From: Promethearchaeota archaeon
GTDB taxonomy: Archaea > Asgardarchaeota > Thorarchaeia > Thorarchaeales > Thorarchaeaceae
DNA length: 38,868 bases
Direction of reading: 5' to 3'
Assembly: GCA_048939765.1 (NCBI GenBank)
Contig: JBHLPF010000013.1
Span: 39,207 to 78,074, forward strand
Part shown: positions 1-15,154 of the stretch, piece by piece
Layout of the letters: the number at the start of each line of letters is the position of its first letter
Numbering within the stretch: position 1 is the first letter of the stretch
Program-made: the position numbers and the translations under genes
The notes under the pieces: generated by a model
Database searches by the model: none
What the model was told of the DNA's origin: nothing
The model's input: only the letters and a program-made list of their open reading frames with translations

Positions 1-650
1 GCCTCCCTTACAACTGTTCTATCCTCGATGTTGTAATGGAGGGTGCCCCTTGAGATTAGAATCACAAGATAGAGAAATCGTCGAAGAAATTCTTCAAAGT
101 CCTCGTTGAGTATGATGTCATCAACATCTATCTTCTCTCCCACTGGAATGCCCGCTCCAAACTCTTGAGCATCTTCCAGTAGAATTGCATCCTCTGACGG
201 GAATGTATATCCATTTGGCAACGGTGCAATGGTTGGGACTTTTTCTTCAGGCGGTTCCATTCCAAGTTTGTCAATAAATTGCTTAATTCGGACCGATGAA
301 CGATCTAGTGCCGAGTGATCTAGGTGGGCTATTGATACCGGGTGGTGATATACTATCAGACCAGCTAGATCTCTCGCCGATAGAGTCTTTATTTTCGCCA
401 CATATAGCTCGGGAGAGGCGAGGACTCTCGCGAGTTCCTGCACCTTGTCTACTTTGGCTCCCAACACCTCGTTAAGCATCTCATCCATATCGAGCCTTAT
501 GCCAACTTTGGCGGTGAGCTTTTGGAGCTTCCTGTACTCAGGAGTGAGTCTGATTTCAAGCGGATCGACTCTTCCCGAACGGACAGACTCCGCTATTCTG
601 AGGATGTTCTCAGTAAATGTCTTGATTTCGCTCACAGAACTGCACCTCAT
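1..650 (-). CDS. Kleisin/ScpA-like SMC partner (3' end truncated by window edge; not in ORF track)
   Basis: Open frame from ATG 650 (ATGA overlap with the SMC stop) or GTG 635 (GAGGTG RBS 7 nt upstream) to base 1. Translation MRCSSVSEIKTFTENILRIAESVRSGRVDPLEIRLTPEY...EDFEEFLRRFLYLVILISRGTLHYNIEDRTVVRE. The N-terminal DPLEIRL resembles ScpA DPWDIDI, and the C-terminal FLYLVILISRG resembles the kleisin winged-helix FLALLxLxxxG. Confidence 0.7.
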   Translation of the reverse strand, partial: MRCSSVSEIKTFTENILRIAESVRSGRVDPLEIRLTPEYRKLQKLTAKVGIRLDMDEMLNEVLGAKVDKVQELARVLASPELYVAKIKTLSARDLAGLIVYHHPVSIAHLDHSALDRSSVRIKQFIDKLGMEPPEEKVPTIAPLPNGYTFPSEDAILLEDAQEFGAGIPVGEKIDVDDIILNEDFEEFLRRFLYLVILISRGTLHYNIEDRTVVRE

Positions 651-3600
651 TGCCCTGAGAATCTAGGACTCTCCACTATTATCGAGGGATCTGTACCGCC
701 AGGAGAAACAACGCCAAGTCTCTTGTCGGCATGCTTAAGGAGATGTGTACTTTTCGCGGGTGTGAAGAGAATGAATTGACTGCGGCGAGATGCATCATAA
801 AGAAGCTTGCTCACAGACTCTGTGTTTGTCGCATCTAGAAAGATATCTACTTCATCTAATGCATATGTCGGAGCTGGGTTGAATCTCTGTAGAGCCAATA
901 TCAGTGCTATCGCGATCAATGATCTCTCTCCTCCAGACCCCTGACTTATCTCCCCAAACTCGTCGCCCTTTATTCGGGACTTGAACTCCACACCATAGAT
1001 GCCATCTCTAAGTGTCAGGTTGAATTTAGCTCGTCCTGCAAACTCCGCAGTAGCCAAAATCTTGTTCACATTCTTCTCCACTTTGGACAGAGTTGCATTC
1101 ATTCCATTGTGATACTGGTCTCGAATGTGCTTTACAGTAGCCTCTGCTTCGAAGAGTTCAACCTTCAGTGTGTCTACCTGAATCATCAGCTCAGAGAGTC
1201 GCCCTTTCAGTCTGGACTCGGTATGAGCTACGCTCTCAGAAACATCCTCATAGTCGTCAAGGAGGTGCCGAATGCGAAGCAACTCCTGCCTTGCCGTATC
1301 TAGAGGTCTGACTGCATCAGGTCTTATCACCTTTTCAAGTTCCTGTTGAAGTCGCTTCTGCTCCTCTTCCATGTTGCGTAGCTGCTTCTGAGCCTGCAGA
1401 ACAAGAAGTCGACTGTCTTTTATCATAAGATTCAGTTCTATTAGGCGTTCTCCCACACTCCGGAGAATCTCGTTTATTCCACTCAATTCCTCCTTCAACT
1501 TGCTCTCTTTGTCGTTAGACTCCAAGAGACCTAGCTCAAGGGTCTCAATCAATTCGGTTATGGAGGCTGCTTCGCTCTTTGAATTCTTTATCTCTTCTCT
1601 CAGTTCCATAATTCGGCCTGAAAGCATTGCAATGGTTTCATTATGTGCTTTCAAGTCTGCACGTCGGCGATCTTCATCTCGCTCTGTGGCGTGAAGCCCT
1701 CGCTCAACCTTTGAGAGATCTCCCTGGAGTTTCCTCAACCTGAGTCGAATTGCTGACCTCTGCCCTGCAAGCCTGCTCCTCTCGGGTGGTTGTGAGGTGT
1801 CTAGCTTTCTCAGTTCTCTCTGTGCCTTTCCAATCTCTACCTGCAGATCTTTCAACTCGTCGTCGAAGCCTGCGATTTTCTCCTGAACAACTGGGATGCT
1901 ATCCGATAGCTTCTTCCTACGCTCCCATATGCTACTCCAGCGTGTCATATGCCCCTGCAGTTCGAGGACCTTCTCTCTCTCATTCGTTGCTCTCTCGAGT
2001 TTCTCCATCACTTGCGTGACGTTCTTTCTCGTAACAACGAGCTCTCTCTCGATCTTTAGAAGACGCGTCTGAAGAGGGGCTGTAGACACCAATCCTGATG
2101 GTGCCTTCTTTGGATGACTGATTATGCTCCTAGGAGTTACCTCAACGACTGACCCATCACGCGATACCGCCATGAGCCTATCTTTCCTAGCAACTCGTGA
2201 TGCAACTCTGCCAGTGCTGGTTAGGACGATGTCTCCAAATGCCTTTTTCAGAAGCAGTTTCTCATCCTCGTCAAGTGAGAGAATCTCCCATAGCCATCCA
2301 TCAATACCATTTCCAGATGGAAGACTTGGGGTCGATGCCTCCAGCTCGTCGTTAAGCAGGATAATTGGTGATGGTGCTTCCGACTTGTCTCTCAGCTTCA
2401 GAACCAATGCATAATCGGTTGGGTCACTCACAATGAAGGCAAAGGGTAGAGTACCGGTGAATACAGCCTCTACTGCATTTGAGTATTCATCACTCTTCAT
2501 AAGAAGTTCCACAAGCGGTCCATTTACCGAAGTCAGCTTGTGTTCGGCAATAGCGTCCTTTAGGTCCCTTACGGCGCTGGGAATACGTTCTGATGATTCG
2601 GATAACTTAACCCTGATCTCATCAATCTCCTTCTGTAACTGAGAAACCAGACTTGAATTCTGAAATCTCTGTTCATTCAGTGTGGCTATCTCTCTTTCCA
2701 GCTGGCCCTTTCGTCGAGCAAGCTCCTTCTCATCGGTTTCCTCTAAAGCCTTCCATATGTGAGCCCATTTGCTATCGATGCTCTGTAACTCCGCCTCTTC
2801 GTTTTGAAGCCGTTCTTGATGGCTCCTCAGTAGCAGGTCCTTCTTCTCGATATCACTCTGAAGTGCTTTATAGTCAATATACGCCTCAGTGCGAATCGTA
2901 TTCCATTCTTCAAATGCAGAGAGTTCCTGTTCGGTTCTGTCCAGATCTATCTCGATGGATTCAATCTCTGTGCTAATCTCTTTCCGATCCTGAAGATATT
3001 GCTCCTTATTTGCCATTGTCCTCTCGAGTTCATCCTTCGCCGCTTCCTTCTCCCGTTCTGTCTTCTTCAACTCCCTTCCAAGCTGACTAATTTCATCAAC
3101 TACACCTTTGGATTCATCCTCTATCTTCTGCATCCGTCTTCTTTCTTCATCAATACGTGCCTCAATCCCTCCAATTTCTCGTTGAAGTGATTCGAGGCGC
3201 GATTCTACTCCAGAGGCAGCCTCTTGGTTCTCTTCTATTTGGGTTTCTAGTGATTTCTGCTCATCAAGGACGGCTACCAGCCCTGATTCTCTATTTTCGA
3301 TCTCATCTCTTAGCTCTACCAGTTTAGCAAGGATGTCATCAAGAGTTGCCCATTTCACCTCAGTCTCAAGATCCTTCTCCTCTTTTTTGAGGGCCCGCTT
3401 TTTCTCTAATCTCGCAAGGTCATGTTTGAGAAGAGCGAGCTCTCTCTCCACTACCCTTGATTCATCAAGCGCCGCTTGCAGCTTATGCTGGCTATGTGCT
3501 ACCTCTGTTTCTTGGACTGCGATTCGATCTCGTACTTCGTCGAGACCTGTGCCTTCCTCAACCAGACGACGGACCTCGATGGGATTCATCTCACGTAGTG

Positions 3601-4015
3601 CATTGATCCGTTCCTGAGGCATGAATACGAGTGTGTTGTCGATATCAAGGCCCAGCGAGCTGACAAGATTCCTTAATTCCGCAGCTTTTACCCGTTTTCC
3701 ATCTACGTAGGCTTTCGGTATTCCATCGCGGTCAATGCGCCGGAGAAACGAGTGACTGATTCCTCCGTTGTTCACATTCACCTCAACTTCAGCCGAAGTG
3801 GCTCCATGCCTCACGAAGTCGCTCCATTTCGAGTAGCGTTCCTCTCGCTGGTTTGAACCAAGAGCAAACTTGATTGCGTGAAACACTGATGTCTTGCCAG
3901 AGCCGTTTGGTCCAATGATGACTGTAAGCCCAGGATCAAAGCTAACAACTCCCTTGTAAAACGAGAGGAAGTTCTTGAGCCTGACTGAACCAATGTGGAC
4001 CTTGGCCTTGCTCAC
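647..4015 (-). CDS. smc: SMC family ATPase, SMC5/6-related (hinge-type)
   Basis: Walker A GPNGSGKT, Q-loop DNTLVFMPQERI, two long coiled coils around a hinge (VNGPLVELL...AVEAVF...FAFIV), signature GSGGERS, Walker B/D-loop ALDEVDIFLD, C-terminal SQFILFTP. No CxxC zinc hook. GTG start with AGGAGG RBS. Confidence 0.93.
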   Translation of the reverse strand: MSKAKVHIGSVRLKNFLSFYKGVVSFDPGLTVIIGPNGSGKTSVFHAIKFALGSNQREERYSKWSDFVRHGATSAEVEVNVNNGGISHSFLRRIDRDGIPKAYVDGKRVKAAELRNLVSSLGLDIDNTLVFMPQERINALREMNPIEVRRLVEEGTGLDEVRDRIAVQETEVAHSQHKLQAALDESRVVERELALLKHDLARLEKKRALKKEEKDLETEVKWATLDDILAKLVELRDEIENRESGLVAVLDEQKSLETQIEENQEAASGVESRLESLQREIGGIEARIDEERRRMQKIEDESKGVVDEISQLGRELKKTEREKEAAKDELERTMANKEQYLQDRKEISTEIESIEIDLDRTEQELSAFEEWNTIRTEAYIDYKALQSDIEKKDLLLRSHQERLQNEEAELQSIDSKWAHIWKALEETDEKELARRKGQLEREIATLNEQRFQNSSLVSQLQKEIDEIRVKLSESSERIPSAVRDLKDAIAEHKLTSVNGPLVELLMKSDEYSNAVEAVFTGTLPFAFIVSDPTDYALVLKLRDKSEAPSPIILLNDELEASTPSLPSGNGIDGWLWEILSLDEDEKLLLKKAFGDIVLTSTGRVASRVARKDRLMAVSRDGSVVEVTPRSIISHPKKAPSGLVSTAPLQTRLLKIERELVVTRKNVTQVMEKLERATNEREKVLELQGHMTRWSSIWERRKKLSDSIPVVQEKIAGFDDELKDLQVEIGKAQRELRKLDTSQPPERSRLAGQRSAIRLRLRKLQGDLSKVERGLHATERDEDRRRADLKAHNETIAMLSGRIMELREEIKNSKSEAASITELIETLELGLLESNDKESKLKEELSGINEILRSVGERLIELNLMIKDSRLLVLQAQKQLRNMEEEQKRLQQELEKVIRPDAVRPLDTARQELLRIRHLLDDYEDVSESVAHTESRLKGRLSELMIQVDTLKVELFEAEATVKHIRDQYHNGMNATLSKVEKNVNKILATAEFAGRAKFNLTLRDGIYGVEFKSRIKGDEFGEISQGSGGERSLIAIALILALQRFNPAPTYALDEVDIFLDATNTESVSKLLYDASRRSQFILFTPAKSTHLLKHADKRLGVVSPGGTDPSIIVESPRFSGQ

Positions 4016-4028
4016 GCGTTGGTTCCTC

Positions 4029-5093
4029 CTACCTTCCCATTATTCTCCGCAATCTGTCATTGTTCTTTTTTGCCCTCAGTAGTCGAGTCAATCGATCCTC
4101 TGGAGTTCCCTTCATCAAGAATGGATACTCGCTAAGGTATTCAAAGTCCTTTGAAGACAAAGGAAGACTCGAGTTCAGAGCCTCTATGACTCTCTGAGTT
4201 TCTGCGTAGTTGTCGCCGACGGCTAATAGGTAGAGTTGGTCTAAGAAATCATCAGGATACTCGGGTTCGACGGCATCTATGCTTGGCACATGCCCACCTT
4301 GAATTCGGGTCACTAGGTGGTCAAACGCCCTTTTTCTCCCCACTGGAAGAACCCCGCTTTCTGCAATCATCTGTTCTAGCTTCTCTCTGGTAACTTCCTC
4401 TCCAACCTCTTCCAGGGCCAGTTTCACCGCGAGATGCCTAGTTTCAATGAAGCTCCACCCTTCACTGAGTTCTGCAGCATCTGTTGGACTGAGGTTATCT
4501 CTGCCCTTGAACGCCTTTTCAAACAAACGCACTCGGTCATCAAGTGTGGCCTTTTCCGAAACGAATGTATGGTCAAAGCTAGACAAAAGCTCGGCATCCA
4601 TCGCTTGCGGGGACGAAGTTGAAGCTATCAGAAGCACTTCATCTGCGTCCCAACTGACTCTTTCGGACTCGAGTCCGAGTAGAGCTGATTCCCGCGAATG
4701 AGCTGGAGCGATGTATTCAGCTCGGTCAATGTAAAGTATTGAGGGCGCGTTCCTTTTCGCAAACTCGAACCAGAAACTAATCGATTCTCGCACACTGTCA
4801 GACCGTCCAAGGACTCTTTCCAACCTAGGACGCACGATGTTGATTGGAATCTCACGTGATAAGTACTGCACAAATGCCTCGAAATCTGTGCCTACGCTTC
4901 CAATCAATAATACCTTCCCGCCAAATGCAAATCCTTTCTTTCTCAGGTCATCGCTCAGGTTGTCGAAACGTGATATTGATTCGTGAAACATCTTTGCCAT
5001 TTCCAAAATGGAATACTGGCTCAGGCGGTTATTGTCTAGGTCCTCAGGTCTAGTCAGAATGACCGTGTCTGCGTAGATATTGTCTTCTCCCAC
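4029..5093 (-). CDS. Degenerate (inactive) classical-clade AAA ATPase with a C-terminal helical extension
   Basis: AAA-like motifs KVLLIGSVGTDFE (Walker A), FEFAKRNAPSILYIDRAE (Walker B) and VLLIASTSSPQAMDAELLSSFD (SRH), with the catalytic residues replaced. Start reassigned from 5225 to GTG 5093, which has a GGAGAG RBS. The stop lies 13 nt before the smc start. Confidence 0.75.
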   Translation of the reverse strand: MGEDNIYADTVILTRPEDLDNNRLSQYSILEMAKMFHESISRFDNLSDDLRKKGFAFGGKVLLIGSVGTDFEAFVQYLSREIPINIVRPRLERVLGRSDSVRESISFWFEFAKRNAPSILYIDRAEYIAPAHSRESALLGLESERVSWDADEVLLIASTSSPQAMDAELLSSFDHTFVSEKATLDDRVRLFEKAFKGRDNLSPTDAAELSEGWSFIETRHLAVKLALEEVGEEVTREKLEQMIAESGVLPVGRKRAFDHLVTRIQGGHVPSIDAVEPEYPDDFLDQLYLLAVGDNYAETQRVIEALNSSLPLSSKDFEYLSEYPFLMKGTPEDRLTRLLRAKKNNDRLRRIMGR

Positions 5094-5233
5094 AGTATTA
5101 TCTCTCCGGCATGCTTGCGAACCCTGACAACTTCTGCAAATAATGTCTTCGCAGTCGACAAGAATCCGCGCCGTCCTATCGTGCCTATACACAAGGATTA
5201 AGGCACCTCTTGCGTCATCCATCATGATTCATA

Positions 5234-6946
5234 ATGAGCAGTCCGTCAGACATTCTCCGTGACAAGGTCTGGAACGCAATCACAACCGTAGAGAGTAGAG
5301 GTCTTTTCGTTCATTCAACTGATTTGGCTATTCGTTTCAAGGAAAGAGCAAGAACGAGCGACAAGGTATCCACTCGACGGTTGCCTCAGATTGTAGGTGC
5401 GTGTGTTCTTAACACACTGGTGCCCCGTTCTGCAATGCTCCTCGTGGGAGGACATGGTGGAGGTAAAACGACACTGGTGAAGCTCCTCGGAAGGATGATG
5501 ACTGGGAAAAGTCTAGATGAGATTGATGATGGAATGCTTAGAGGGCATCCACAACTAACAGAAGAGAAGATGGTGGCCACTCTTCGTCCTGGCCCACTGA
5601 TGAAGGATGGTGTGGAGGTAGTGGTATGGAGAAACTTCGTCACCGGCTTTTGGAAAATGATTGATGAGGTCAATCGACTGACTCCTCACGCTCAGAACAT
5701 TCTCCTCTCAATGCTCGCTGAGGGTGAGCTGAAATACTACGATGAGGTCAAGAAATGCGAGGAATACTGTCTGTTTGCCACTCTTAATCCCTCAGATGCT
5801 GGAACATTCGAACTGGCTCCTCCCTTCTTGGATAGGTTTGGTGTAGCTGTTCCGATTACGATGCCATCCATCAATGACCTTGAGCTCATTCTCACAACCC
5901 GAGATGAACGGCTATTCGGCTATGATGAGCTCTGGCAAGTTCCTGCAATCCTCAGTGAAGAGGATCTTCTCACTATATGGAATCTGGCTGACAAAGTACC
6001 AGTTTCCGCTAGGGCGTCGGAATATATGCGGTCATTGATCAGGGAGTTTGGCGCCTGCATTCGAACAGACAAGAGTCAGACACACGAGTTGACTGTTGAA
6101 ACTGGGCTCTGCGATGGCTGTCACTTCAATACGGCAAAGAGTGTCTGCAACAAAGTTGTGATTCCTCTTAGCGTGAGAGCCGCCAAGGACCTGAATCGGT
6201 ATGCAAAAGCTGCTGCGTGGTTGGTTGGAGCTGGGGAGGTTGGCGTTGAGATAGTGAAGTCGCTTGCTCCACTTGTCTTCTGGCATAGAACGCGTTTCAC
6301 TGGCGATGAAATGGAGCGAGCTCCGTTCTATGGTGATAGGTTTGCTTTCGCGGAGCATCTCGTAGAGCTGGCATCAACTAGGTTTGCACAAAGAGAGGCT
6401 GCAATCGAGCTCATGGAGAAATTGCGTACTGGGACCGCTCACAAAGACGCTCTTGATGAGCTAAAGGAAATGGGGAAGAGTGATCTCCTCGTCAAGATTG
6501 ACTATATCGACTTCGCAAAGGAGCTCAAAAAGAAACGCTATGTGAAAATGGTTCAGAGTATAGAGAAGGGAGTCAGAGACAAGGATGTGACCAAGCTCAC
6601 TGAAGTTCACTCCGAGCTTATGAAGGACACCGACTTCCCAAACAGAAGTGTCCTACTGAATAGAGTGTCAGAATCTCTACACAGACTAACACTCTCTCAA
6701 TTTAACATCACCTTCGAGCAATGGCAAGAGCTTTGGACTGTCATTAGTCTACGGTATCCTTCCATGACTAGTATCTTGAAGGAAACTCTCACTCCTCCCA
6801 AACGAAAAGTAGTTCGAACAGATGGGTTGACCTTGGTCATCTACGTCACTGGCGATAAGCCTGAATCTTCAGTCTTTCTTGAGATATCTGGAGGAACTGA
6901 TGCGTTAGAATTGAAAAAAGAGATTGAAACAAGCCTTAATGAATAG
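5234..6946 (+). CDS. MoxR-family AAA+ ATPase
   Basis: Walker A GGHGGGKTT, Walker B MIDEVNR, FATLNP, PFLDRF and sensor-2 SVRA; followed directly by a vWA gene. Confidence 0.85.
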   Translation: MSSPSDILRDKVWNAITTVESRGLFVHSTDLAIRFKERARTSDKVSTRRLPQIVGACVLNTLVPRSAMLLVGGHGGGKTTLVKLLGRMMTGKSLDEIDDGMLRGHPQLTEEKMVATLRPGPLMKDGVEVVVWRNFVTGFWKMIDEVNRLTPHAQNILLSMLAEGELKYYDEVKKCEEYCLFATLNPSDAGTFELAPPFLDRFGVAVPITMPSINDLELILTTRDERLFGYDELWQVPAILSEEDLLTIWNLADKVPVSARASEYMRSLIREFGACIRTDKSQTHELTVETGLCDGCHFNTAKSVCNKVVIPLSVRAAKDLNRYAKAAAWLVGAGEVGVEIVKSLAPLVFWHRTRFTGDEMERAPFYGDRFAFAEHLVELASTRFAQREAAIELMEKLRTGTAHKDALDELKEMGKSDLLVKIDYIDFAKELKKKRYVKMVQSIEKGVRDKDVTKLTEVHSELMKDTDFPNRSVLLNRVSESLHRLTLSQFNITFEQWQELWTVISLRYPSMTSILKETLTPPKRKVVRTDGLTLVIYVTGDKPESSVFLEISGGTDALELKKEIETSLNE

Positions 6947-6960
6947 GAGACTGCTGGTAG

Positions 6961-8679
6961 TTGACAGAGGCTCGGGAATTGGGCAGAAGCGATTTATTGA
7001 GTGAGGTCGCACGTCGCGCATGGGAGAGTGCGCTCGCTGACTTCTACCATCCGCCTTTGCCTGATGTCCACGTGGAGCATGTTGCAGATGCTAGCAGCTA
7101 CTTCTACATCGAAACAGATGACTGGACAGTCCATCTGAACACAGCCGGGGTGCCTCCCCATCTTGACATGAATGAGGCTGAGCCATATCTCAGATCCATA
7201 TGCCATCACGAGATTCAGCATTACTTGGTTTGTCCTTACGATACCGTGATGAATGGAATGATGTTTGCAGCAGCTAGACGCCATGTCACCGATGCAACGG
7301 CATTGTTTGTATGTAACCTGTTCGCAGATCTGGTTGTCGATTCTGCCTTGCTTAAGAGGTACACACGTCTCACTCACTCGCGTATCACATCCAACATCTT
7401 TGGTTCTTCCATGATGGGTCAAGCTCATAGCCCGCTGTGGCTCTTGATAGTGTCCTGCTATAGGGCGATGTGGGGGTTTCCGCTTCCGTCAACAGTCGCT
7501 GTAGACAAGGAAACCTACGAGGCTGCTGAGTCGATAGCATGGATTGGCCGAAAGAACATCGATAATGAAAAAAGGTGGCCCAAGGCGGTAGAGGAGATTG
7601 CGAAGATTGTGGCTCAATGGCAGCCCGATATTGATGAAACTCTTGCAGGTTGCGATGGAGCTGCTGAGCCTGGTGAAGGCCAGGTCACAGGATCTGTCTT
7701 CGTCCCGCTTGATGTAGATGCGGTGATGGGCAACCCTATCGAGATTCGGAATGGTGACCGTGCAAAGCGATGTATGAGAGATGCTGAAGACGAGGATCTT
7801 GAGAAGGAAATGGAGCGGCTAGCGGTTGAGGTTGAACAGAGAGGTGGAGACCTTAGAGACCTGGAAGCTGTCTATCTGGTTGCTGGAATAGGCTCGAAGA
7901 GGAAAGAGTGGATTCGCTTCTGGTATAGGGCAAAGGTCCGCGGTCTCTTGAGATTTGATGTAAGAGAGCAAAAAGTAGCAGGTTCTACGCCGCTGTCCAC
8001 TCAGGTCTGGCGGCTGGGGGATCCCATTGAGGAGCTTGACGTCGTACAGAGCCTGCAGTCGTTCCCTGTCTTGGTGCCTAATCTCTCTACTAGACGATGG
8101 CTCAGGACAGAGATGTACGGAGAGTTTGAATCCCACACACTTCCAGATCTATTGCTTGTGATTGACTCAAGTGGTTCAATGACTTGGTCAATGCGTGGTC
8201 CGAATGTGTCTGGGCCATACCATACTGCATTGGTTTCTGCATTTGCAGCCGTGGATATTGCTCTGCGGAAAGGGAGCCGAGTTGCTGCCATCAACTTCTC
8301 TGATGGAACTCGCATCTGTGACTGGACTAGAGAACGTTCGACAGTTGAGAAAGTGCTACTGGCATATCAAGGTGGGGGCACAGTTGCTCCAATAAAGAAG
8401 GTTTCTGATGCTTGCGATTCTGCAGGCTCTGCGGTCATGGTCCTCCTGATTACAGATGCTGAGATTGCAAACTGGAATCGACTCATCAAGTCGATGGCAA
8501 AGCTGACTCGTCGCGGTCACAAGTATTTCATGTTCCACATCGAGTCACTTGGATACGAGATTGAGGACCAAGCTCTAATCGCTATGGCCAAAGCTGGCGC
8601 CACAGTCATACCCATTGAGTCGGTCAAGGACCTTCCTGGGTTAGTTGTGAGAGAGGTAAGAGGCGTCTATAGGGCATGA
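6961..8679 (+). CDS. vWA-domain protein with an N-terminal HExxH zincin-like domain (MoxR partner)
   Basis: HHEIQH followed by NLFADLVVD at the N-terminus. C-terminal MIDAS motifs IDSSGSM, GGT and LITDAE. GGAGA RBS before the TTG start. Confidence 0.82.
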   Translation: MTEARELGRSDLLSEVARRAWESALADFYHPPLPDVHVEHVADASSYFYIETDDWTVHLNTAGVPPHLDMNEAEPYLRSICHHEIQHYLVCPYDTVMNGMMFAAARRHVTDATALFVCNLFADLVVDSALLKRYTRLTHSRITSNIFGSSMMGQAHSPLWLLIVSCYRAMWGFPLPSTVAVDKETYEAAESIAWIGRKNIDNEKRWPKAVEEIAKIVAQWQPDIDETLAGCDGAAEPGEGQVTGSVFVPLDVDAVMGNPIEIRNGDRAKRCMRDAEDEDLEKEMERLAVEVEQRGGDLRDLEAVYLVAGIGSKRKEWIRFWYRAKVRGLLRFDVREQKVAGSTPLSTQVWRLGDPIEELDVVQSLQSFPVLVPNLSTRRWLRTEMYGEFESHTLPDLLLVIDSSGSMTWSMRGPNVSGPYHTALVSAFAAVDIALRKGSRVAAINFSDGTRICDWTRERSTVEKVLLAYQGGGTVAPIKKVSDACDSAGSAVMVLLITDAEIANWNRLIKSMAKLTRRGHKYFMFHIESLGYEIEDQALIAMAKAGATVIPIESVKDLPGLVVREVRGVYRA

Positions 8680-8685
8680 TGTTTC

Positions 8686-10131
8686 TTACTCTGCTGCCTT
8701 GTCATCTGTTGTAGGTTGTGGGAGCCCCATTAGATATGCATGCATTGATTTCGCCGCGATTCTCCCAGCACCCATCGCTTCAATCACTGTGGCTGAACCT
8801 GTAACAATATCACCACCAGCCCATATTTGAGGGATGTTCGTCCGATTGTTCTCATTTACAACAATGTAGCCCCACTTGTTGAGTTCTAAGTCAGGCATTG
8901 TCTTTGTCAATAGTGGGTTTGCACCTGCTCCGATTGAGATGATGACTTGATCGCATTCCATCTCAAAGTTTGAGCCCGCGATAGGAATTGGTCGTTTTCT
9001 TCCGCTGGCATCAGGTTCCCCGAGCTCCATCCTAATGCATTCCATGCCTACAACGTTGCCATCTTTACCAAGAATCCTGACAGGATTCGTAAGCAACTGG
9101 AATATGATGTCCTCCTCCTCGGCATGATGGACTTCTTCTGCTCTTGCCGGGAGCTGTTCTCGTGCTCGCCTGTATACGATGGTCACCTTCGCACCCAATC
9201 TTTTGGCGGTCCGAGCAGAGTCCATAGCTACATTTCCTCCACCAACAACACAAACATGCTTTCCCGGGGGCAATGGAGAGTCATAATCAGGAAACAAATA
9301 GCCCTTCATGAGATTGGATCTGGTCAAGTACTCATTAGCAGAGAATACTCCGTTCAATTCTTCTCCCTCGATTCTCATGAACCACGGAAGGCCTGCTCCT
9401 ACACCGATGTAGATTGCATCATATTCATCCATGAGCTCATCCATTGTTACTGTCATTCCAGCAACAACATTCAGCTCAAAGCGCACTCCTTGCTTTGCTA
9501 GATAGTCCACTTCGGCTGCGACTATTTCTTTTGGGAGTCTGAATTCGGGGATACCGTAGACTAGAACGCCGCCGGCCTTATGGAGTGCTTCAAAGACAGC
9601 AACCTCATGACCCAAGAGAATTAGGTCGCCTGCAACCGTCAGACCAGATGGCCCGGAGCCAATTATAGCAACTTTCTTTCCTGTTGGTTTTGGACTTGGT
9701 GGGATCTCGACCAGATTATTGTTCCTCTCATAATCGGCTACAAAGCGTTCCAGAGCACCAATAGAAACTCCACCATATCTCTTGAAAAGCGTGCAATCTC
9801 CTTCGCATTGATTCTCTTGGGGGCATACTCTTCCAGTGACAGCAGGAAGCACATTAGTTTCCTTGATTAGTTTCGCAGCCTCTCCAAACTTCCCTTCTCC
9901 TACTAGCTTGATGAATTCAGGAATTTGAACACCGACAGGACAGCCAGAAACACAAGGTTGCTTTCTGCAATCAAGGCATCTTTTTGCTTCTTGCATAGCT
10001 TGTTCAGGTGTGAGCCCCAATGGGACCTCCTGGAAATTCGTTGCTCTCAATGACGGATTTTGCGCTGGCATCTTGGCTCTGGGAATGGCCATCCGTTCTT
10101 TGGGGGTGAGTCCATCTCTTCGTTCGCTCAC
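8686..10131 (-). CDS. nfnB: NfnB/SudA (GltD-like) NADPH-dependent flavin Fe-S subunit of NADH-dependent ferredoxin:NADP+ oxidoreductase
   Basis: CLDCRKQPCVSGCP, RVCPQENQCEGDC, FAD motif GSGPSG, YGIPEFRLPK, NADPH motif GGGNVAMD...YRR, GGDIVTG; adjacent to an NfnA gene. Confidence 0.9.
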   Translation of the reverse strand: MSERRDGLTPKERMAIPRAKMPAQNPSLRATNFQEVPLGLTPEQAMQEAKRCLDCRKQPCVSGCPVGVQIPEFIKLVGEGKFGEAAKLIKETNVLPAVTGRVCPQENQCEGDCTLFKRYGGVSIGALERFVADYERNNNLVEIPPSPKPTGKKVAIIGSGPSGLTVAGDLILLGHEVAVFEALHKAGGVLVYGIPEFRLPKEIVAAEVDYLAKQGVRFELNVVAGMTVTMDELMDEYDAIYIGVGAGLPWFMRIEGEELNGVFSANEYLTRSNLMKGYLFPDYDSPLPPGKHVCVVGGGNVAMDSARTAKRLGAKVTIVYRRAREQLPARAEEVHHAEEEDIIFQLLTNPVRILGKDGNVVGMECIRMELGEPDASGRKRPIPIAGSNFEMECDQVIISIGAGANPLLTKTMPDLELNKWGYIVVNENNRTNIPQIWAGGDIVTGSATVIEAMGAGRIAAKSMHAYLMGLPQPTTDDKAAE

Positions 10132-11007
10132 TTAGGCCACCTCCCTGCGGTCCTTTGCACAATCCTTCAAAGCGCCATCTATTCGACTTTTATGGAATTG
10201 ATATGCCATATTCTCTTCTGCAGCGTATGCATGTTTTCTTGCGAAGACCATGTCCCAGTTCACCAGATGCCCATCAAAGTCAGGACCATCAACGCACGTA
10301 AACTTCGTATTCCCATCCACTTCAACGCGACAGATTCCGCACATCCCTGTGCCATCTAGCATCAATGAGTTCATAGCTACGATTGTGGGAATATTGTGCT
10401 CTTTTGTGCCCCTTGAGGAAACCATCATCATGTAGGTGCAGCCAATGAAGTGGGCGTAGTCGATTTTTCCCTCCTTTTCCAGAATATGCGGCAAGGCTTC
10501 GGGAACATGTCCCATGAGCCCCCTGGAGCCATCAGCGGTCACAATATATAGCTCATCGACTACCTCTCGAATCTTCTCTTCATTGTATATGATATATGTT
10601 GTTCGAGCCTCAAAGAGACCAATCACTCTGTTGCCCGCTTCCTTGTACGCTTTTGCCAGAGGGTAAATCGCGCCCAGTCCATAGCAACCGCCGCCTAGAA
10701 GAACAGTTCCAAATTTCTCAATCTTCGAAGGTCTTCCAAGGGGCCCTACGAGTGTATATACCATCTCGCCTGGTTTCATACGACCAAGTTTCATTGTTGA
10801 AACTCCGGCCTCCTGATAGAAGATGGTAATAGTGCCATCTTCAGGGGACCAATCGGAAAGTGTGAAGGGTGTCCTTTCTCCCTCCTCGTCAGGTATTATT
10901 ATGATGAATTGCCCTGGTTTAGCCCGCTTAGCGATTAATGGTGCAGATAGAACAAGGCGGTGCACGTTAGGAACCACTTCTTCATTGATAATAATCTCTC
11001 CTTTCAT
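10132..11007 (-). CDS. nfnA: NfnA/SudB (PyrK/FNR-like) FAD/[2Fe-2S] subunit
   Basis: KPGQFII, ERTPFTL, GPLGRP, and the Asp/Cys [2Fe-2S] motif MLDGTGMCGICRV...TCVDGPDFD. Confidence 0.9.
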   Translation of the reverse strand: MKGEIIINEEVVPNVHRLVLSAPLIAKRAKPGQFIIIIPDEEGERTPFTLSDWSPEDGTITIFYQEAGVSTMKLGRMKPGEMVYTLVGPLGRPSKIEKFGTVLLGGGCYGLGAIYPLAKAYKEAGNRVIGLFEARTTYIIYNEEKIREVVDELYIVTADGSRGLMGHVPEALPHILEKEGKIDYAHFIGCTYMMMVSSRGTKEHNIPTIVAMNSLMLDGTGMCGICRVEVDGNTKFTCVDGPDFDGHLVNWDMVFARKHAYAAEENMAYQFHKSRIDGALKDCAKDRREVA

Positions 11008-13316
11008 GAAACCACCTCCCTCGCCTTCGCGGCCCTTTCTTTCTGAACGCGTTTCACTAGTTCATCCAGATTCTCTTCCGTAGGTGGCCTGTCTCTGTCT
11101 GGAAGTGCGTCTATGAAGATAGCCAGATCCTCAATCCTCTCAGGGATTACCGCGCCTCTATATCTGGGATACCAATCGTTCTTCTCTCTAGATGCAGGTT
11201 TCCATGATGCCCTTATTGTTTGTCCACCGGTTTCTATGCTGCGAGTGAAGCGTGACAGTTCCTTCCAGACTTCCTCAGCTGTTTCAAAGGCAAATCCCTT
11301 TGCACCAATCTTCTGACCTAGTTCGGCAAAGATCTGCCAGTCCTGTCGAGGTGTTCCTGGGCCTTTTGCAATGGGTTTGATTTTAAGCGGTTTCATCTCA
11401 AGATTGATGAATGTCCCACTCTCCTCTAGAAAGGCCGCGGCAGGAAGGATCACTGATGCAAAATTCGACCACTCTGATGGATAGGGTGATTGATAGATTA
11501 CAGTTGGCACCTTCTCAAATCCTGCAGAGGATAAAGACCCCTCCGCAATATACAGCACATCCAATTCGCCCTTCTTCGCCTTCTGACGCATCTCAACTAA
11601 ATGGAGGCCGTCCGTGAAGTTAGCTTCCTCCCAAGTTTTTTCCATGAGTCGCTTGATATCCTTGATAGTCACAGAAGTAGGACCTGGCAGCATCTCAGGA
11701 CGCAATCCCGCTCTCAAAGCTCCAGCTTCATTTCCTAATGGGAACAATGGGTATATTGCACCATCTTCTCCAGCAAGTCGCACAAGGGTACGAAGTGCTA
11801 GATTTGGCTGTTTGATTTCCAGAATTCTGGGTCCAAGTAGGATGGCTCCTTTTCCATCTCCCGTAATTTCAATAAGCCGTTGAGCCTGAGCCTTTGTCGT
11901 CCCATGTATACTCACATTGCGTTCAGCAAGATTCTTCAGAAATCTAGGCACATCCTTTGGCCGCATCGGGAAATGGAAGGCCGCCCATCTCTGTAGGTTA
12001 TCACCTACACTTCCAACTGCAATGAGTGGCTTGCCTTGTCTTACCTGTTTGTACACGACCTTTGCGACTACCTGATGTGTCTTGACAAAATCGCCGCCAA
12101 CTGACATTATCCAGTCTACATCGTCTAGGTGGTCGAGTCCGCGTATTATAGCAAAGTCTTGAGGAGCTGCAAGCTCCTTGTGAATCAGTGCTGGGAAGTC
12201 TGATCCTTGAAAGTCCACATTCGGACTCCTTACACCCACCCTGGCCAATTTATGGAACAAATATGCCGACTCGGTACTCATCTGAGGGCTTCCAATGAAT
12301 CCAACTCTTTCTGGATTGGCTTCCTTCAGAATCCGGGCTGTTTCGTCCAACGCCTCTTCCCAAGATACTGGAACTAGGCTTCCTTCCTTCATCAGACGCG
12401 GTGTTCTAATTCGGTCTGGTGCATTGACCAGAGAGGGTATGCAGAATCTACCTATTACACACATATGTCCGTGATTGGGTGAACTCTCGCGGCTTCCAGC
12501 CTCAGATCCCATCACCCTGTTCCATTTGATATTGAATTGGGTTTGACAGCCAAGTCCGCAGAGGACGCATGTGGTTTCCTCAATTGAATCTGGTGCACCA
12601 GTCCATTTTGTCATTCGTGGCTTCAGCGAGCCAGTAGGACAGACATCGATGCACGCTCCACAGAACCAGCATCCACTCTCAATGTGAGAAATACCAAATG
12701 ACGTATCAACTCTGGTCTTATGTCCGCGCTTTGCAAAGGTTATCGCGGAGGTTCCTCGAATGTCATCACAGACGCGAATACATCTTGCGCAGAGGATGCA
12801 TAGATTGTAGTCCCTATCGAAGAATGGATCATGCCGCTCGACTTCAATTTCCTTGTAATGCGGGAGATAATCAAGATTCTTGATTCCCAGGAATTCCACA
12901 ACCTCTCTCAGCTGGCATGTGTATCGATTTGGGCACGTTGTGCATCCCGTAACTCTTCCTGCCTTGTAGGGCTCTGGTCTATACTCGTTGCAGCCTTCCT
13001 GCTCTGCGCAAACCATACACGCACTCGGGTGTTCCATAAGAAGGAGCTGCATGATTCTGCGCTTAAGGGTCAAAAGCTTCTCTGTGGATGTCTTGACTTG
13101 CATTCCATCTTTTGCAGCAGTGCTGCATGCAGGCGGAAATCCTCTCATTCCTTCAACTTGAACAATGCACATCCTGCAGCCACCATGTGATTCCAATTCA
13201 TCGTGGTCACATAGAGTTGGGATGTAAATGCCAAATTGCCTGGCAACATCAAGGATGGTGTCCCCCTTCTCCTCAAACTCGAGCTTACGGCCATCAATAT
13301 GCATAATCGCCATCAC
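11004..13316 (-). CDS. NuoG/FdhA-like Fe-S subunit (HydA/BfuA-type N-terminus, molybdopterin-oxidoreductase fold lacking the Mo ligand)
   Basis: [2Fe-2S] IPTLC...GCRMC...PPAC; His/Cys cluster HPSACMVC...C; CILCARCIRVC and CWFCGACIDVCP; TTCVLCGLGC...MCVIGRF. The Fdh catalytic loop is replaced by NVDFQGSDF. Confidence 0.85.
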   Translation of the reverse strand: MMAIMHIDGRKLEFEEKGDTILDVARQFGIYIPTLCDHDELESHGGCRMCIVQVEGMRGFPPACSTAAKDGMQVKTSTEKLLTLKRRIMQLLLMEHPSACMVCAEQEGCNEYRPEPYKAGRVTGCTTCPNRYTCQLREVVEFLGIKNLDYLPHYKEIEVERHDPFFDRDYNLCILCARCIRVCDDIRGTSAITFAKRGHKTRVDTSFGISHIESGCWFCGACIDVCPTGSLKPRMTKWTGAPDSIEETTCVLCGLGCQTQFNIKWNRVMGSEAGSRESSPNHGHMCVIGRFCIPSLVNAPDRIRTPRLMKEGSLVPVSWEEALDETARILKEANPERVGFIGSPQMSTESAYLFHKLARVGVRSPNVDFQGSDFPALIHKELAAPQDFAIIRGLDHLDDVDWIMSVGGDFVKTHQVVAKVVYKQVRQGKPLIAVGSVGDNLQRWAAFHFPMRPKDVPRFLKNLAERNVSIHGTTKAQAQRLIEITGDGKGAILLGPRILEIKQPNLALRTLVRLAGEDGAIYPLFPLGNEAGALRAGLRPEMLPGPTSVTIKDIKRLMEKTWEEANFTDGLHLVEMRQKAKKGELDVLYIAEGSLSSAGFEKVPTVIYQSPYPSEWSNFASVILPAAAFLEESGTFINLEMKPLKIKPIAKGPGTPRQDWQIFAELGQKIGAKGFAFETAEEVWKELSRFTRSIETGGQTIRASWKPASREKNDWYPRYRGAVIPERIEDLAIFIDALPDRDRPPTEENLDELVKRVQKERAAKAREVVS

Positions 13317-15154
13317 TCTGCCCCTCCCTTTGCATGCCTCAGCTCGCTATGAGCGGATATCTTCAATACTGCATCTGCCTTAGGAGGGCAGACCTCATAA
13401 CAAGCGCCACACTTGATGCAAAGATCCTGCTGGATATGGTGAATCTCATCTTTTCTACCCTGTGCAGCCCCTGTTGGACAAATCCTTTTGCAAGCCCCGC
13501 ATGCAATGCATTTATCCGGGTCTATGACGAATTTAACAAGGTCTCTGCAGACCATTGCTGGACAGGTCCTGTCCTTGATGTGGGTTTCATATTCACTCCT
13601 AAAATACTCGATAGTTGTAAGGACTGGATTGGGTGCGTTTTGTCCAAGCCCACAAAGAGATCCATCTACAACGGTTTCGCACAGTTCGAGAAGTTTCTCA
13701 ATATCTCCATCCTCACCACGCCCTTCTCGAATCTTGTCAAGAATGCGAAGCATCTGAAGGGTGCCCATCCTGCAGGGTGTGCATTTGCCACATGATTCTT
13801 GCTGCGTGAATGATAGGAAGTATCTTGCAACATCCACCATGCAGGTCGTTTCATCCATTACTATCATCCCGCCAGAGCCCATGATAGCTCCAGCCTCTCT
13901 AAGTGAATCGAAATCCACAGGGAGGTCAAGCTTCTCTGCTGGAAGACATCCCCCGGCCGGACCACCGGTCTGAACTGCCTTGAAGGTGCGGTCATCCTTG
14001 ATGCCACCACCCACATCGAATATGATGTGCCGAAGTGTTGCCCCCATAGGCACTTCGACCAAGCCTGTGTTCTTGACTTTTCCAGTAAGTGAGAATATTG
14101 CAGTCCCAGGGCTGCCGTCTGTCCCAATTGATTTGAACCATTCCCACCCTTCTCTGAGAATGATGGATGCATTCGCTAGGCTCTTTACATTATTGATCAC
14201 TGTAGGTTTGCCCCAAAGGCCAGACTCTGAAGGGAATGGTGGTCTAGGCCTAGGCATTCCTCTTCGTCCTTCAATAGATGCCATGAGGGCAGTTTCTTCA
14301 CCACAAACAAATGCTCCCGCACCTTCCATCAGATGAATTCGGAGGCTGAAGTTTGAGCCCAGAATGGAGTCCCCCCAGAATCCTCTCTCATAGGATGCCT
14401 TCAGAGCTTTCTTCAATGAGGCTACGGCGGCAGGATATTCATGACGAACATATACGTAGGCCTCATCGGCTCCAATAGCATAGGCGCATATTGAGAGACC
14501 CTCAAGGACGGAATGGGGATCTGCACCAAGAATGGACCCATCCATGAACGCACCAGGGTCTCCCTCATCTGCATTACAGATCGCGTATTTCTTATCTCCT
14601 GGGGAATTCCTTGTGAGTTTCCACTTCAATCCTGCTGGAAATCCTGCTCCCCCTCTGCCTCTAAGGCCGGAATTTGAAATCTCTTCTATGACCTCTTCTG
14701 GAGTCATTTCTTTCAGAGCACGTTCAAATCCCTTGTAGCCGCCGACTGAAAGATAATCATCTATTCTGCCTGGATCGATATGACCAGAGTTCTTCAACAC
14801 CACTCGATGTTGCTTGGAGTAGAATGGGATGTCCCTATAGTGAGGAATTCTCTCTCCTTCAGGCGATTGATAGAATAGCCTCTCAACTGGCTTTCCTCTG
14901 GAGAAGTGCGAATCCACGATTTCTGGAATATCCTCCTCTCTCACTTGACAATAGAATAAGCCTTCTGGCTCAATGGCAACTACAGGACCCTGTTGGCAGA
15001 GTCCATGGCATCCAATTCTCGTGATCTTGACCTTATTCTCGAGCTTCTTGTTCTTGACCTGTTCAGTCATCCTGATGTAGAGTGTCTCAGACTTGGCTGA
15101 CTCGCAGCCCGTACCCAAACAGATCAAGGCCTCAATCTCATCAGATTCGACCAT
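13313..15154 (-). CDS. NuoF/HydB-like (BfuB) FMN/NAD-binding subunit with N-terminal [2Fe-2S] and C-terminal 2x[4Fe-4S]
   Basis: CLGTGC...GCHGLC, SGLRGRGGAGFP, NADEGDPGAFMD, GAGAFVCGEETAL, ESCGKCTPCR, HIKDRTCPAMVC, CIACGACKRICP and CIKCGACYEVCP. Confidence 0.93.
   Translation of the reverse strand: MVESDEIEALICLGTGCESAKSETLYIRMTEQVKNKKLENKVKITRIGCHGLCQQGPVVAIEPEGLFYCQVREEDIPEIVDSHFSRGKPVERLFYQSPEGERIPHYRDIPFYSKQHRVVLKNSGHIDPGRIDDYLSVGGYKGFERALKEMTPEEVIEEISNSGLRGRGGAGFPAGLKWKLTRNSPGDKKYAICNADEGDPGAFMDGSILGADPHSVLEGLSICAYAIGADEAYVYVRHEYPAAVASLKKALKASYERGFWGDSILGSNFSLRIHLMEGAGAFVCGEETALMASIEGRRGMPRPRPPFPSESGLWGKPTVINNVKSLANASIILREGWEWFKSIGTDGSPGTAIFSLTGKVKNTGLVEVPMGATLRHIIFDVGGGIKDDRTFKAVQTGGPAGGCLPAEKLDLPVDFDSLREAGAIMGSGGMIVMDETTCMVDVARYFLSFTQQESCGKCTPCRMGTLQMLRILDKIREGRGEDGDIEKLLELCETVVDGSLCGLGQNAPNPVLTTIEYFRSEYETHIKDRTCPAMVCRDLVKFVIDPDKCIACGACKRICPTGAAQGRKDEIHHIQQDLCIKCGACYEVCPPKADAVLKISAHSELRHAKGGAE

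Follow-up and report, generated by a model that had tools for sequence, protein, structure and literature searches.

A probable Smc5/6-related SMC gene and its operon in a thorarchaeal genome

We analysed a stretch of 38,868 nucleotides (nt) from a Promethearchaeota archaeon of the family Thorarchaeaceae (GenBank assembly GCA_048939765.1, contig JBHLPF010000013.1, positions 39,207 to 78,074), which is referred to in full as the window and numbered from its first letter. The gene of interest occupies 647-4015 on the minus strand and encodes a structural maintenance of chromosomes (SMC) ATPase of 1122 amino acids (aa; P0001). A preliminary description of the sequence had called this protein Smc5/6-type rather than canonical, and that assignment is supported by a head-domain phylogeny, by profile-profile scores, by an invariant proline and an NF[L/M] motif, and by loss of the hinge glycines. 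The same genome encodes a canonical Smc, of which this protein is a paralogue; it belongs to an Asgard-wide family that is sister to eukaryotic Smc5 and Smc6, a placement published since 2021 for this kind of SMC.

A full-length SMC ATPase with a divergent hinge

The reading frame at 647-4015 is uninterrupted over 1122 codons, and the gene encodes a full SMC with a bipartite ABC head, long coiled coils, a divergent hinge and intact catalytic motifs. Pfam SMC_N matches residues 8-1103 with 140.7 bits, and Pfam SMC_hinge matches residues 496-608 with 26.5 bits, compared with 113 bits for the hinge of the canonical paralogue. The NCBIfam models TIGR02169 and TIGR02168 gave 281.5 and 249.5 bits against equivalog cut-offs of 729.4 and 567.35, respectively; because these prokaryotic Smc equivalog scores fall so far under their cut-offs, the protein is an SMC yet a non-canonical one.

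All motif strings quoted in the preliminary description were found at the positions claimed, in an open frame. The N-terminal head lobe (residues 1-175; 3491-4015, minus strand, as for all parts of the gene) contains the Walker A motif GPNGSGKT at 3890-3913 and an NFLSF motif, and its columns F16, G35, G40 and K41 (the Walker A lysine) are invariant in the family alignment. The Q-loop region (residues 125-148; 3572-3643) carries Q134, which is likewise invariant. Within the C-terminal head (motifs at 758-943) lie the signature QGSGGERS (residues 1025-1032; 920-943), the Walker B and D-loop string DEVDIFLDATN (residues 1054-1064; 824-856) and SQFILFTP (residues 1079-1086; 758-781). Invariant family positions in this region are S1027 and G1029 of the signature, D1054 and E1055 of Walker B, D1061, Q1080 and P1086.

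The hinge spans about residues 496-640 (2096-2530), and its glycine-motif position, VSRDGSVVEVTPRSII, corresponds to residues 617-632 (2120-2167). When the two proteins of this genome are aligned, the canonical Smc reads G-DLVERS-G-LIT-GG, an exact GX6GX3GG motif, and the window protein reads G-SVVEVT-P-RSI-IS. Three of the four glycines are therefore gone and only the first (G621) is kept, in agreement with the earlier statement that the hinge lacks them.

The canonical Smc (1196 aa; SMC_N 215 bits) is encoded on another contig (C26), directly followed by ScpA (PF02616) and ScpB (PF04079, 114 bits). The presence of this separate operon makes the window gene, which shares 23% identity with the canonical Smc, a paralogue of it. 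A phmmer scan of all open reading frames (ORFs) in the genome, which is 88.5% complete, detected no third long SMC. One gene of the Smc5/6-type family was found, not a pair of paralogous subunits of the eukaryotic kind; a homodimer is the natural inference from a single gene, and the protein presumably forms one. Two other ATPases of the genome are recorded here for completeness. The third-best phmmer match to the window SMC (38 bits) was an ABC ATPase of 429 aa (C1:23220-24509, plus strand) that resembles an SMC head but has neither a hinge nor a long coiled coil. At C60:76709-80175 (minus strand), the gene for an Mre11-like phosphoesterase (463 aa) is immediately followed by one for a short Rad50-like ATPase (692 aa).

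Close homologues, with 49-87% identity, all come from Thorarchaeota/Promethearchaeota metagenome-assembled genomes, and more distant members (19-45% identity) were found in Lokiarchaeum ossiferum (P0146) and in Hel-, Odin-, Sigyn-, Baldr- and Jordarchaeia. A separate search of genome contigs with the family alignment, keyed on the generic Walker A motif, returned only three relevant loci and was set aside. Across 61 sampled Asgard genomes, family-profile scores were two-peaked, with family members at 929 bits or more (one partial sequence at 438) and canonical Smc at 367 bits or less. By this measure the family is present in 14 of the 61 genomes and 4 of the 20 sampled families, including all seven genomes sampled from the family to which the window belongs, the source genome among them; several of the 61 encode both a family SMC and a canonical Smc. 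Separately, SMC-like proteins of about 850-860 aa in other Asgard genomes (G038 C1:1916069-1918525 and G047 C157:32950-35397) match the family profile in the head lobes only and may represent a further SMC-related paralogue class.

Relationship to eukaryotic Smc5 and Smc6

We built a maximum-likelihood tree from the N- and C-terminal head lobes of 69 proteins (318 columns kept). The sample comprised 20 family representatives, 18 canonical archaeal Smc, 10 putative bacterial Smc (recognized by motif), 7 further Smc set apart as an unnamed group by a QFIVISH-type C-terminal motif, 3 vertebrate Smc5, 8 metazoan Smc6, and two eukaryotic sequences, one Smc2-like and one Smc4-like on motif evidence only, with the Rad50-like protein of the same genome (C60) as outgroup. 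A careful IQ-TREE search was performed under LG+C20+F+G4 with posterior mean site frequencies, and supports are given as ultrafast bootstrap/SH-like approximate likelihood ratio test.

Eukaryotic sequences were fetched with two short baits, segments of 66 and 67 residues from the C-terminal heads of human SMC6 and SMC5, respectively. The database records retrieved in this way carry the names SMC5 and SMC6 and include a human fragment identical to the SMC6 bait (100%), and only database sequences, not the baits, entered the analyses. Because retrieval relied on SMC5 and SMC6 baits, eukaryotic sampling is metazoan only. One public record, the SMC5 of Phthorimaea operculella (P0298), has a segment of its C-terminal head (…GMDPINERKMFQLL…TPK) in about five tandem copies; this is probably an artefact of assembly or annotation, and the record was left out.

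In the resulting tree the Asgard-wide family is sister to Smc5 plus Smc6 and separate from the canonical Smc of archaea and bacteria as well as from Smc2/4. Support was 100/96 for the family together with Smc5 and Smc6, 99/96 for Smc5 plus Smc6, and 97/95 for the Asgard family alone. The Rad50 branch, by far the longest, joins between the bacterial-type Smc group and the remaining SMCs, away from Smc5/6, and the family was placed neither with canonical archaeal Smc nor with Rad50. The family branches before the split of Smc5 from Smc6, as a pre-duplication homologue, which the preliminary description had proposed, should do; the comparison of profiles agrees with this.

In hhalign comparisons, the Smc6 profile scored 524 against the family and 420 against canonical archaeal Smc, and the Smc5 profile scored 393 and 345, respectively. 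The family has a longer stem than canonical Smc, so evolutionary rate alone predicts lower Smc5/6 scores against it, the opposite of what was seen. Identity to eukaryotic Smc5 and Smc6 in these profile alignments is about 16-17%. Among the nearest clusters listed by the ESM Atlas, those eukaryotic ones that carry an SMC name are Smc6, which we take as a lead only.

We next separated the motifs that discriminate from those that do not. The proline of QFxxx[T/V/M]P (P1086) is invariant in the alignments of the family, Smc5 and Smc6 and absent from the approximately 90 canonical sequences inspected, which read QFIxx[S/T][L/H][R/K/N] at this site. Near the N-terminus, the family and Smc5/6 have NF[L/M] where the same canonical sequences have an invariant [G/N]FK. 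Hinge glycine loss is also common to the family and Smc5/6 and is not found among those canonical sequences; the GX6GX3GG motif is documented as missing in Smc5 and only partly kept in Smc6 (Alt et al., PMC5290277), which the glycine loss seen here matches. These three characters are clean discriminators and represent derived states shared with Smc5/6. The case confirms that the class can be recognized by motifs alone.

Other features cited earlier as marks of Smc5/6 are present in the protein but proved not to be diagnostic. The Walker B string fits DExDxFLDxxN, which occurs in many canonical archaeal Smc, for example the euryarchaeal-type P0167, P0176, P0187 and P0192. The H-loop indeed has no histidine, but neither does the canonical Smc of this genome (QFIVVSLR), and the SGGER core of the signature is variable inside the family and appears sporadically elsewhere. 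Similarly, the Q-loop 'FMPQER' resembles 'FLPQDK' of Smc5, but only part of the family has the 'PQ' form: the Thorarchaeota-type members and one representative each from Baldr-, Jord- and Odinarchaeia. In most of the remaining members the reading is xQG, as in canonical Smc.

The SMC operon and its neighbourhood

The SMC is the second gene of a minus-strand operon. Downstream, a gene of at least 216 aa occupies 3-650, its start overlapping the SMC stop codon and its last approximately 4 codons lying in a scaffold gap; with the SMC it forms a predicted operon and is co-transcribed. Every Thor-, Loki- and Jordarchaeal locus examined has a homologous gene of about 187-220 aa after the SMC. The protein shows a weak, colinear similarity to the C-terminus of the genome's own ScpA (BLASTP E = 0.007; hhalign E = 0.0028, probability 11%), and neither a Pfam match nor a match to any PDB sequence, Nse4 and ScpA included, was obtained, by profile search as well. 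We therefore refer to it as kleisin-like, on the basis of its position, its size and the weak similarity to ScpA.

In Thor-, Jord- and Lokiarchaeal relatives the gene order is AAA+-like, SMC, kleisin-like and a protein of 150-187 aa. Homology between these lineages extends to each of the three partners, namely the upstream, the kleisin-like and the small protein. Where SMC identity is 49-87%, the relatives have a gene of 167-168 aa after the kleisin-like gene. An AF2 model of one such protein, P0295 from the 87%-identical relative (mean predicted local distance difference test (pLDDT) score of 72), folds as a tandem winged helix; the only full-length matches that Foldseek returned for it were to KITE proteins, namely ScpB, MAGE-A3/Nse3, Nse1, JetB and MukE. 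On the strength of this modelled fold, the small operon protein of the relatives is a predicted KITE. It had no Pfam ScpB match and no PDB sequence match by profile, and its profile did not match the genome's own ScpB in hhalign. A wide VIA-align search with the same model gave mostly single winged-helix regulators and was set aside.

The contig carries exactly 100 N at C80:39107-39206 (6108-6207 of locus L010), ending one base before window position 1. This is the only N run in the contig and a standard scaffold gap of unknown true length, which cuts the kleisin-like gene (by about 4 codons) and a convergent MFS gene (about 25-30 codons short compared with the 87% relative). Because that relative (L017) has a 168-aa KITE gene between the kleisin-like and MFS genes, the KITE gene of the source genome most likely sits in the gap, which would then hold about 590 nt, the missing ends of the two flanking genes included. 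Elsewhere, two Thorarchaeota lineages with 57% SMC identity (L018 7385-9420 and L019 7363-9452) have no KITE gene after the kleisin-like gene, so a KITE is not always part of the operon. In its place these loci have a convergent gene of about 450 aa; plus-strand ORFs following the kleisin-like gene there were considered as KITE candidates and are not KITE homologues.

Upstream of the SMC, separated by a 13-nt gap, lies a gene for an AAA+ protein of 398 aa (4029-5225, minus strand; Pfam AAA, 25 bits). Its Walker A motif, GSVGTDFE, is degenerate, and we read the Walker B string YIDRAE as degenerate too. Foldseek matched its model (pLDDT 59) to Rix7, p97, FtsH and PAN, and the model and motifs together indicate a classical-clade AAA+ fold that is predicted to be catalytically dead. 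A conserved helical domain of about 90 aa (…FLDQLYL.AVGE…) forms its C-terminal part, and in the Thor-, Jord- and Lokiarchaeal loci a homologue lies immediately before the SMC. We found no description of this conserved gene in the literature searched, and the term 'AAA+' does not occur in the searched text of PMC8665677 or of bioRxiv 10.1101/2024.01.07.573240, where the gene thus seems not to be described.

Beyond the operon, a MoxR-type AAA_5 ATPase (5234-6946) and its 572-aa partner (6961-8679; a vWA protein in the relative L012) lie on the plus strand, divergent from the SMC. This pair adjoins the operon in other Thorarchaeota and is co-directional with it in a Jordarchaeon (L013). A run of redox genes follows on the minus strand (8686-15154); Pfam matches identify an NfnB/GltD-like protein (Fer4_20 and Pyr_redox_2), an NfnA-like protein (DHODB_Fe-S_bind), a NuoG/Fdh-like molybdopterin protein and a NuoF-like Complex1_51K protein, and the run looks like an electron-bifurcation-type module. 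Overall, the operon and its flanks, including the Nfn-type oxidoreductase, an H+-PPase and a Zn-ribbon transcription factor, are syntenic across Thorarchaeota.

Interpretation and comparison with known systems

Taken together, we consider it likely that the window SMC belongs to a second, Smc5/6-related complex, distinct from canonical Smc-ScpAB, and that it falls within the archaeal SMC5/6-related class already published. Several points weigh against this interpretation. The eukaryotic part of the tree consists of metazoan Smc6, vertebrate Smc5, one Smc2-like and one Smc4-like sequence, and the archaeal SMC5/6-related sequences in the tree are all from Asgard archaea. Topology testing consisted of one approximately unbiased (AU) constraint, which addresses the position of the root only: grouping the family with all canonical sequences against Smc5/6 with Rad50 was not rejected (log-likelihood difference 7.7, p = 0.27), although this is uninformative about the key node because re-rooting alone satisfies the constraint. 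PDB searches, whether started from the single protein, from the family profile or from an Odinarchaeal member, ranked Pyrococcus Smc and Smc1-4 above Smc5/6. Finally, sequence and fold comparisons assigned the kleisin-like and KITE proteins to no Nse4 or Nse1/3 subtype, and the KITE gene is not visible in the source genome, where a single-query search found none at another site.

Some of these points would favour a different origin, in which the family is a fast-evolving, Asgard-specific duplicate of canonical Smc that groups with Smc5/6 through long-branch attraction and lost its hinge glycines convergently. The head of Pyrococcus Smc has the highest raw similarity to the window protein (104 bits), the AU test is not decisive, several of the supposedly Smc5/6-like motifs are unspecific, and the tree does carry a long-branch flag, though for Smc5 joining Smc6 and not for the family joining them. 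We nevertheless judge this origin unlikely. Raw similarity cannot decide the matter because its ranking reflects the fast evolution of Smc5/6, and the 100/96 support was obtained under a mixture model built to resist long-branch attraction, in a tree where the much longer Rad50 branch attracts neither the family nor Smc5/6. Moreover, Smc5 and Smc6 profiles score the family above the slower-evolving canonical Smc, contrary to a rate effect, the invariant proline and NF[L/M] are common to the family and Smc5/6, and independent published phylogenies place archaeal paralogues likewise (PMC8665677; bioRxiv 10.1101/2024.01.07.573240).

The unusual accessory ATPase genes around the SMC, together with generic head matches in PADLOC (mad3, 117 bits; LmuB, 81 bits), might instead suggest a defence or mobile-element ATPase of Wadjet- or Lamassu-like type, with the MoxR-vWA pair and the dead AAA+ protein as effectors. 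We reject this reading as very improbable: the PADLOC scores are far below the 281 bits of the SMC_prok model, none of the partner proteins matches PADLOC, no nuclease gene is present, and the locus with its flanking genes is syntenic across Thorarchaeota. The presence of the family in every sampled genome of the window's own family indicates vertical inheritance. Likewise, matches to NCBIfam models for ASRP (134 bits) and Rad50 (47-67 bits) raise the question of whether the protein is an SMC-related protein of Rad50, ASRP or ClsN type rather than a true SMC. To this we attach almost no credence and reject it, since the ASRP score (133.9) is far under its cut-off of 300, no Rad50 model scores above 67 where the cut-offs are 700 or more, and both lie below the SMC_prok models. 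The protein has a hinge domain at the site expected for a zinc hook, a separate Rad50-Mre11 pair is encoded in the genome (C60), and Rad50 is a distant outgroup in the tree.

If the window SMC does act in a Smc5/6-related complex, its mechanism may be sketched by analogy with SMC-kleisin-KITE complexes. Two copies of the SMC would dimerize through the glycine-poor hinge, and ATP would engage both heads. The kleisin, carrying a KITE dimer, would connect the two heads by binding one at its neck and the other at its cap, and the resulting ring could clamp or extrude DNA. Because canonical Smc-ScpAB is present for bulk chromosome organization, a specialized role would be more likely, which by analogy with Smc5/6 could be in DNA repair, replication stress or the resolution of DNA junctions. 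More tentatively, and with appreciable doubt, the dead AAA+ protein could be a fourth dedicated subunit in the Thor-, Jord- and Lokiarchaeal loci, with the MoxR-vWA pair perhaps functionally tied to it. If so, its function could be to control the SMC ATPase or the loading of the SMC, comparable to that of Nse5/6 in eukaryotes; the papers searched describe no subunit of this kind. This conserved gene of the operon deserves separate study. Archaeal complexes of Smc5/6 type bear on the origin of the several SMC machines of eukaryotes and indicate that two of them were present in the Asgard ancestor. The window gene itself is one more well-preserved example of a published class, and of modest practical value.

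Compared with canonical Smc-ScpAB, the window SMC has the same architecture and ATPase motifs, its top raw similarity, and a single gene of homodimer type. In contrast to it, the protein falls far under the equivalog cut-offs and has lost the hinge glycines, the actual Smc-ScpAB operon lies elsewhere in the genome, and Pfam matches to ScpA or ScpB were absent from the genes neighbouring the window SMC and from the partners in relatives.

With eukaryotic Smc5 and Smc6 it shares a sister position in the head tree, the QFxxxTP, NF[L/M] and SGGER motifs, a glycine-poor hinge, a length of about 1100 aa that is shorter than canonical Smc, and the partnership with a kleisin and a KITE, the kleisin here being a candidate and the KITE being predicted from the fold modelled in relatives. 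It differs in having a single gene, whereas the eukaryotic subunits are two paralogues and obligate heterodimer partners. The KITE has no RING, and no Nse2-like SUMO ligase or Nse5/6 was seen at the locus: Pfam scans of the neighbouring genes found no Nse2, Nse1 RING or Nse5/6 domain, and no genome-wide search was made.

The closest correspondence is with the archaeal SMC5/6-related SMCs. Yoshinaga & Inagaki (2021, PMC8665677) defined 'SMC5/6-related aSMC', found mostly in TACK but also in Asgard archaea and often beside canonical Smc, and van Hooff et al. (2025, bioRxiv 10.1101/2024.01.07.573240) described two full SMC-kleisin-KITE operons in TACK and Asgard archaea, the SMC5/6-related one having Nse4-related kleisins and Nse1/3-related kites. 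For a Thorarchaeia genome, Supplementary Table 3 of the latter gives an SMC5/6-related SMC and an Nse1/3-related kite with no Nse4-related kleisin detected; here, in contrast to that published Thorarchaeon, a kleisin-like ORF lies between the SMC and, in relatives, the KITE gene. As in that class, the window SMC is a second paralogue beside canonical Smc, branches with Smc5 plus Smc6, and lies in its own operon with a kleisin-like gene and, in relatives, a predicted non-ScpB KITE. For the SMC itself, nothing essential differs from the published class.

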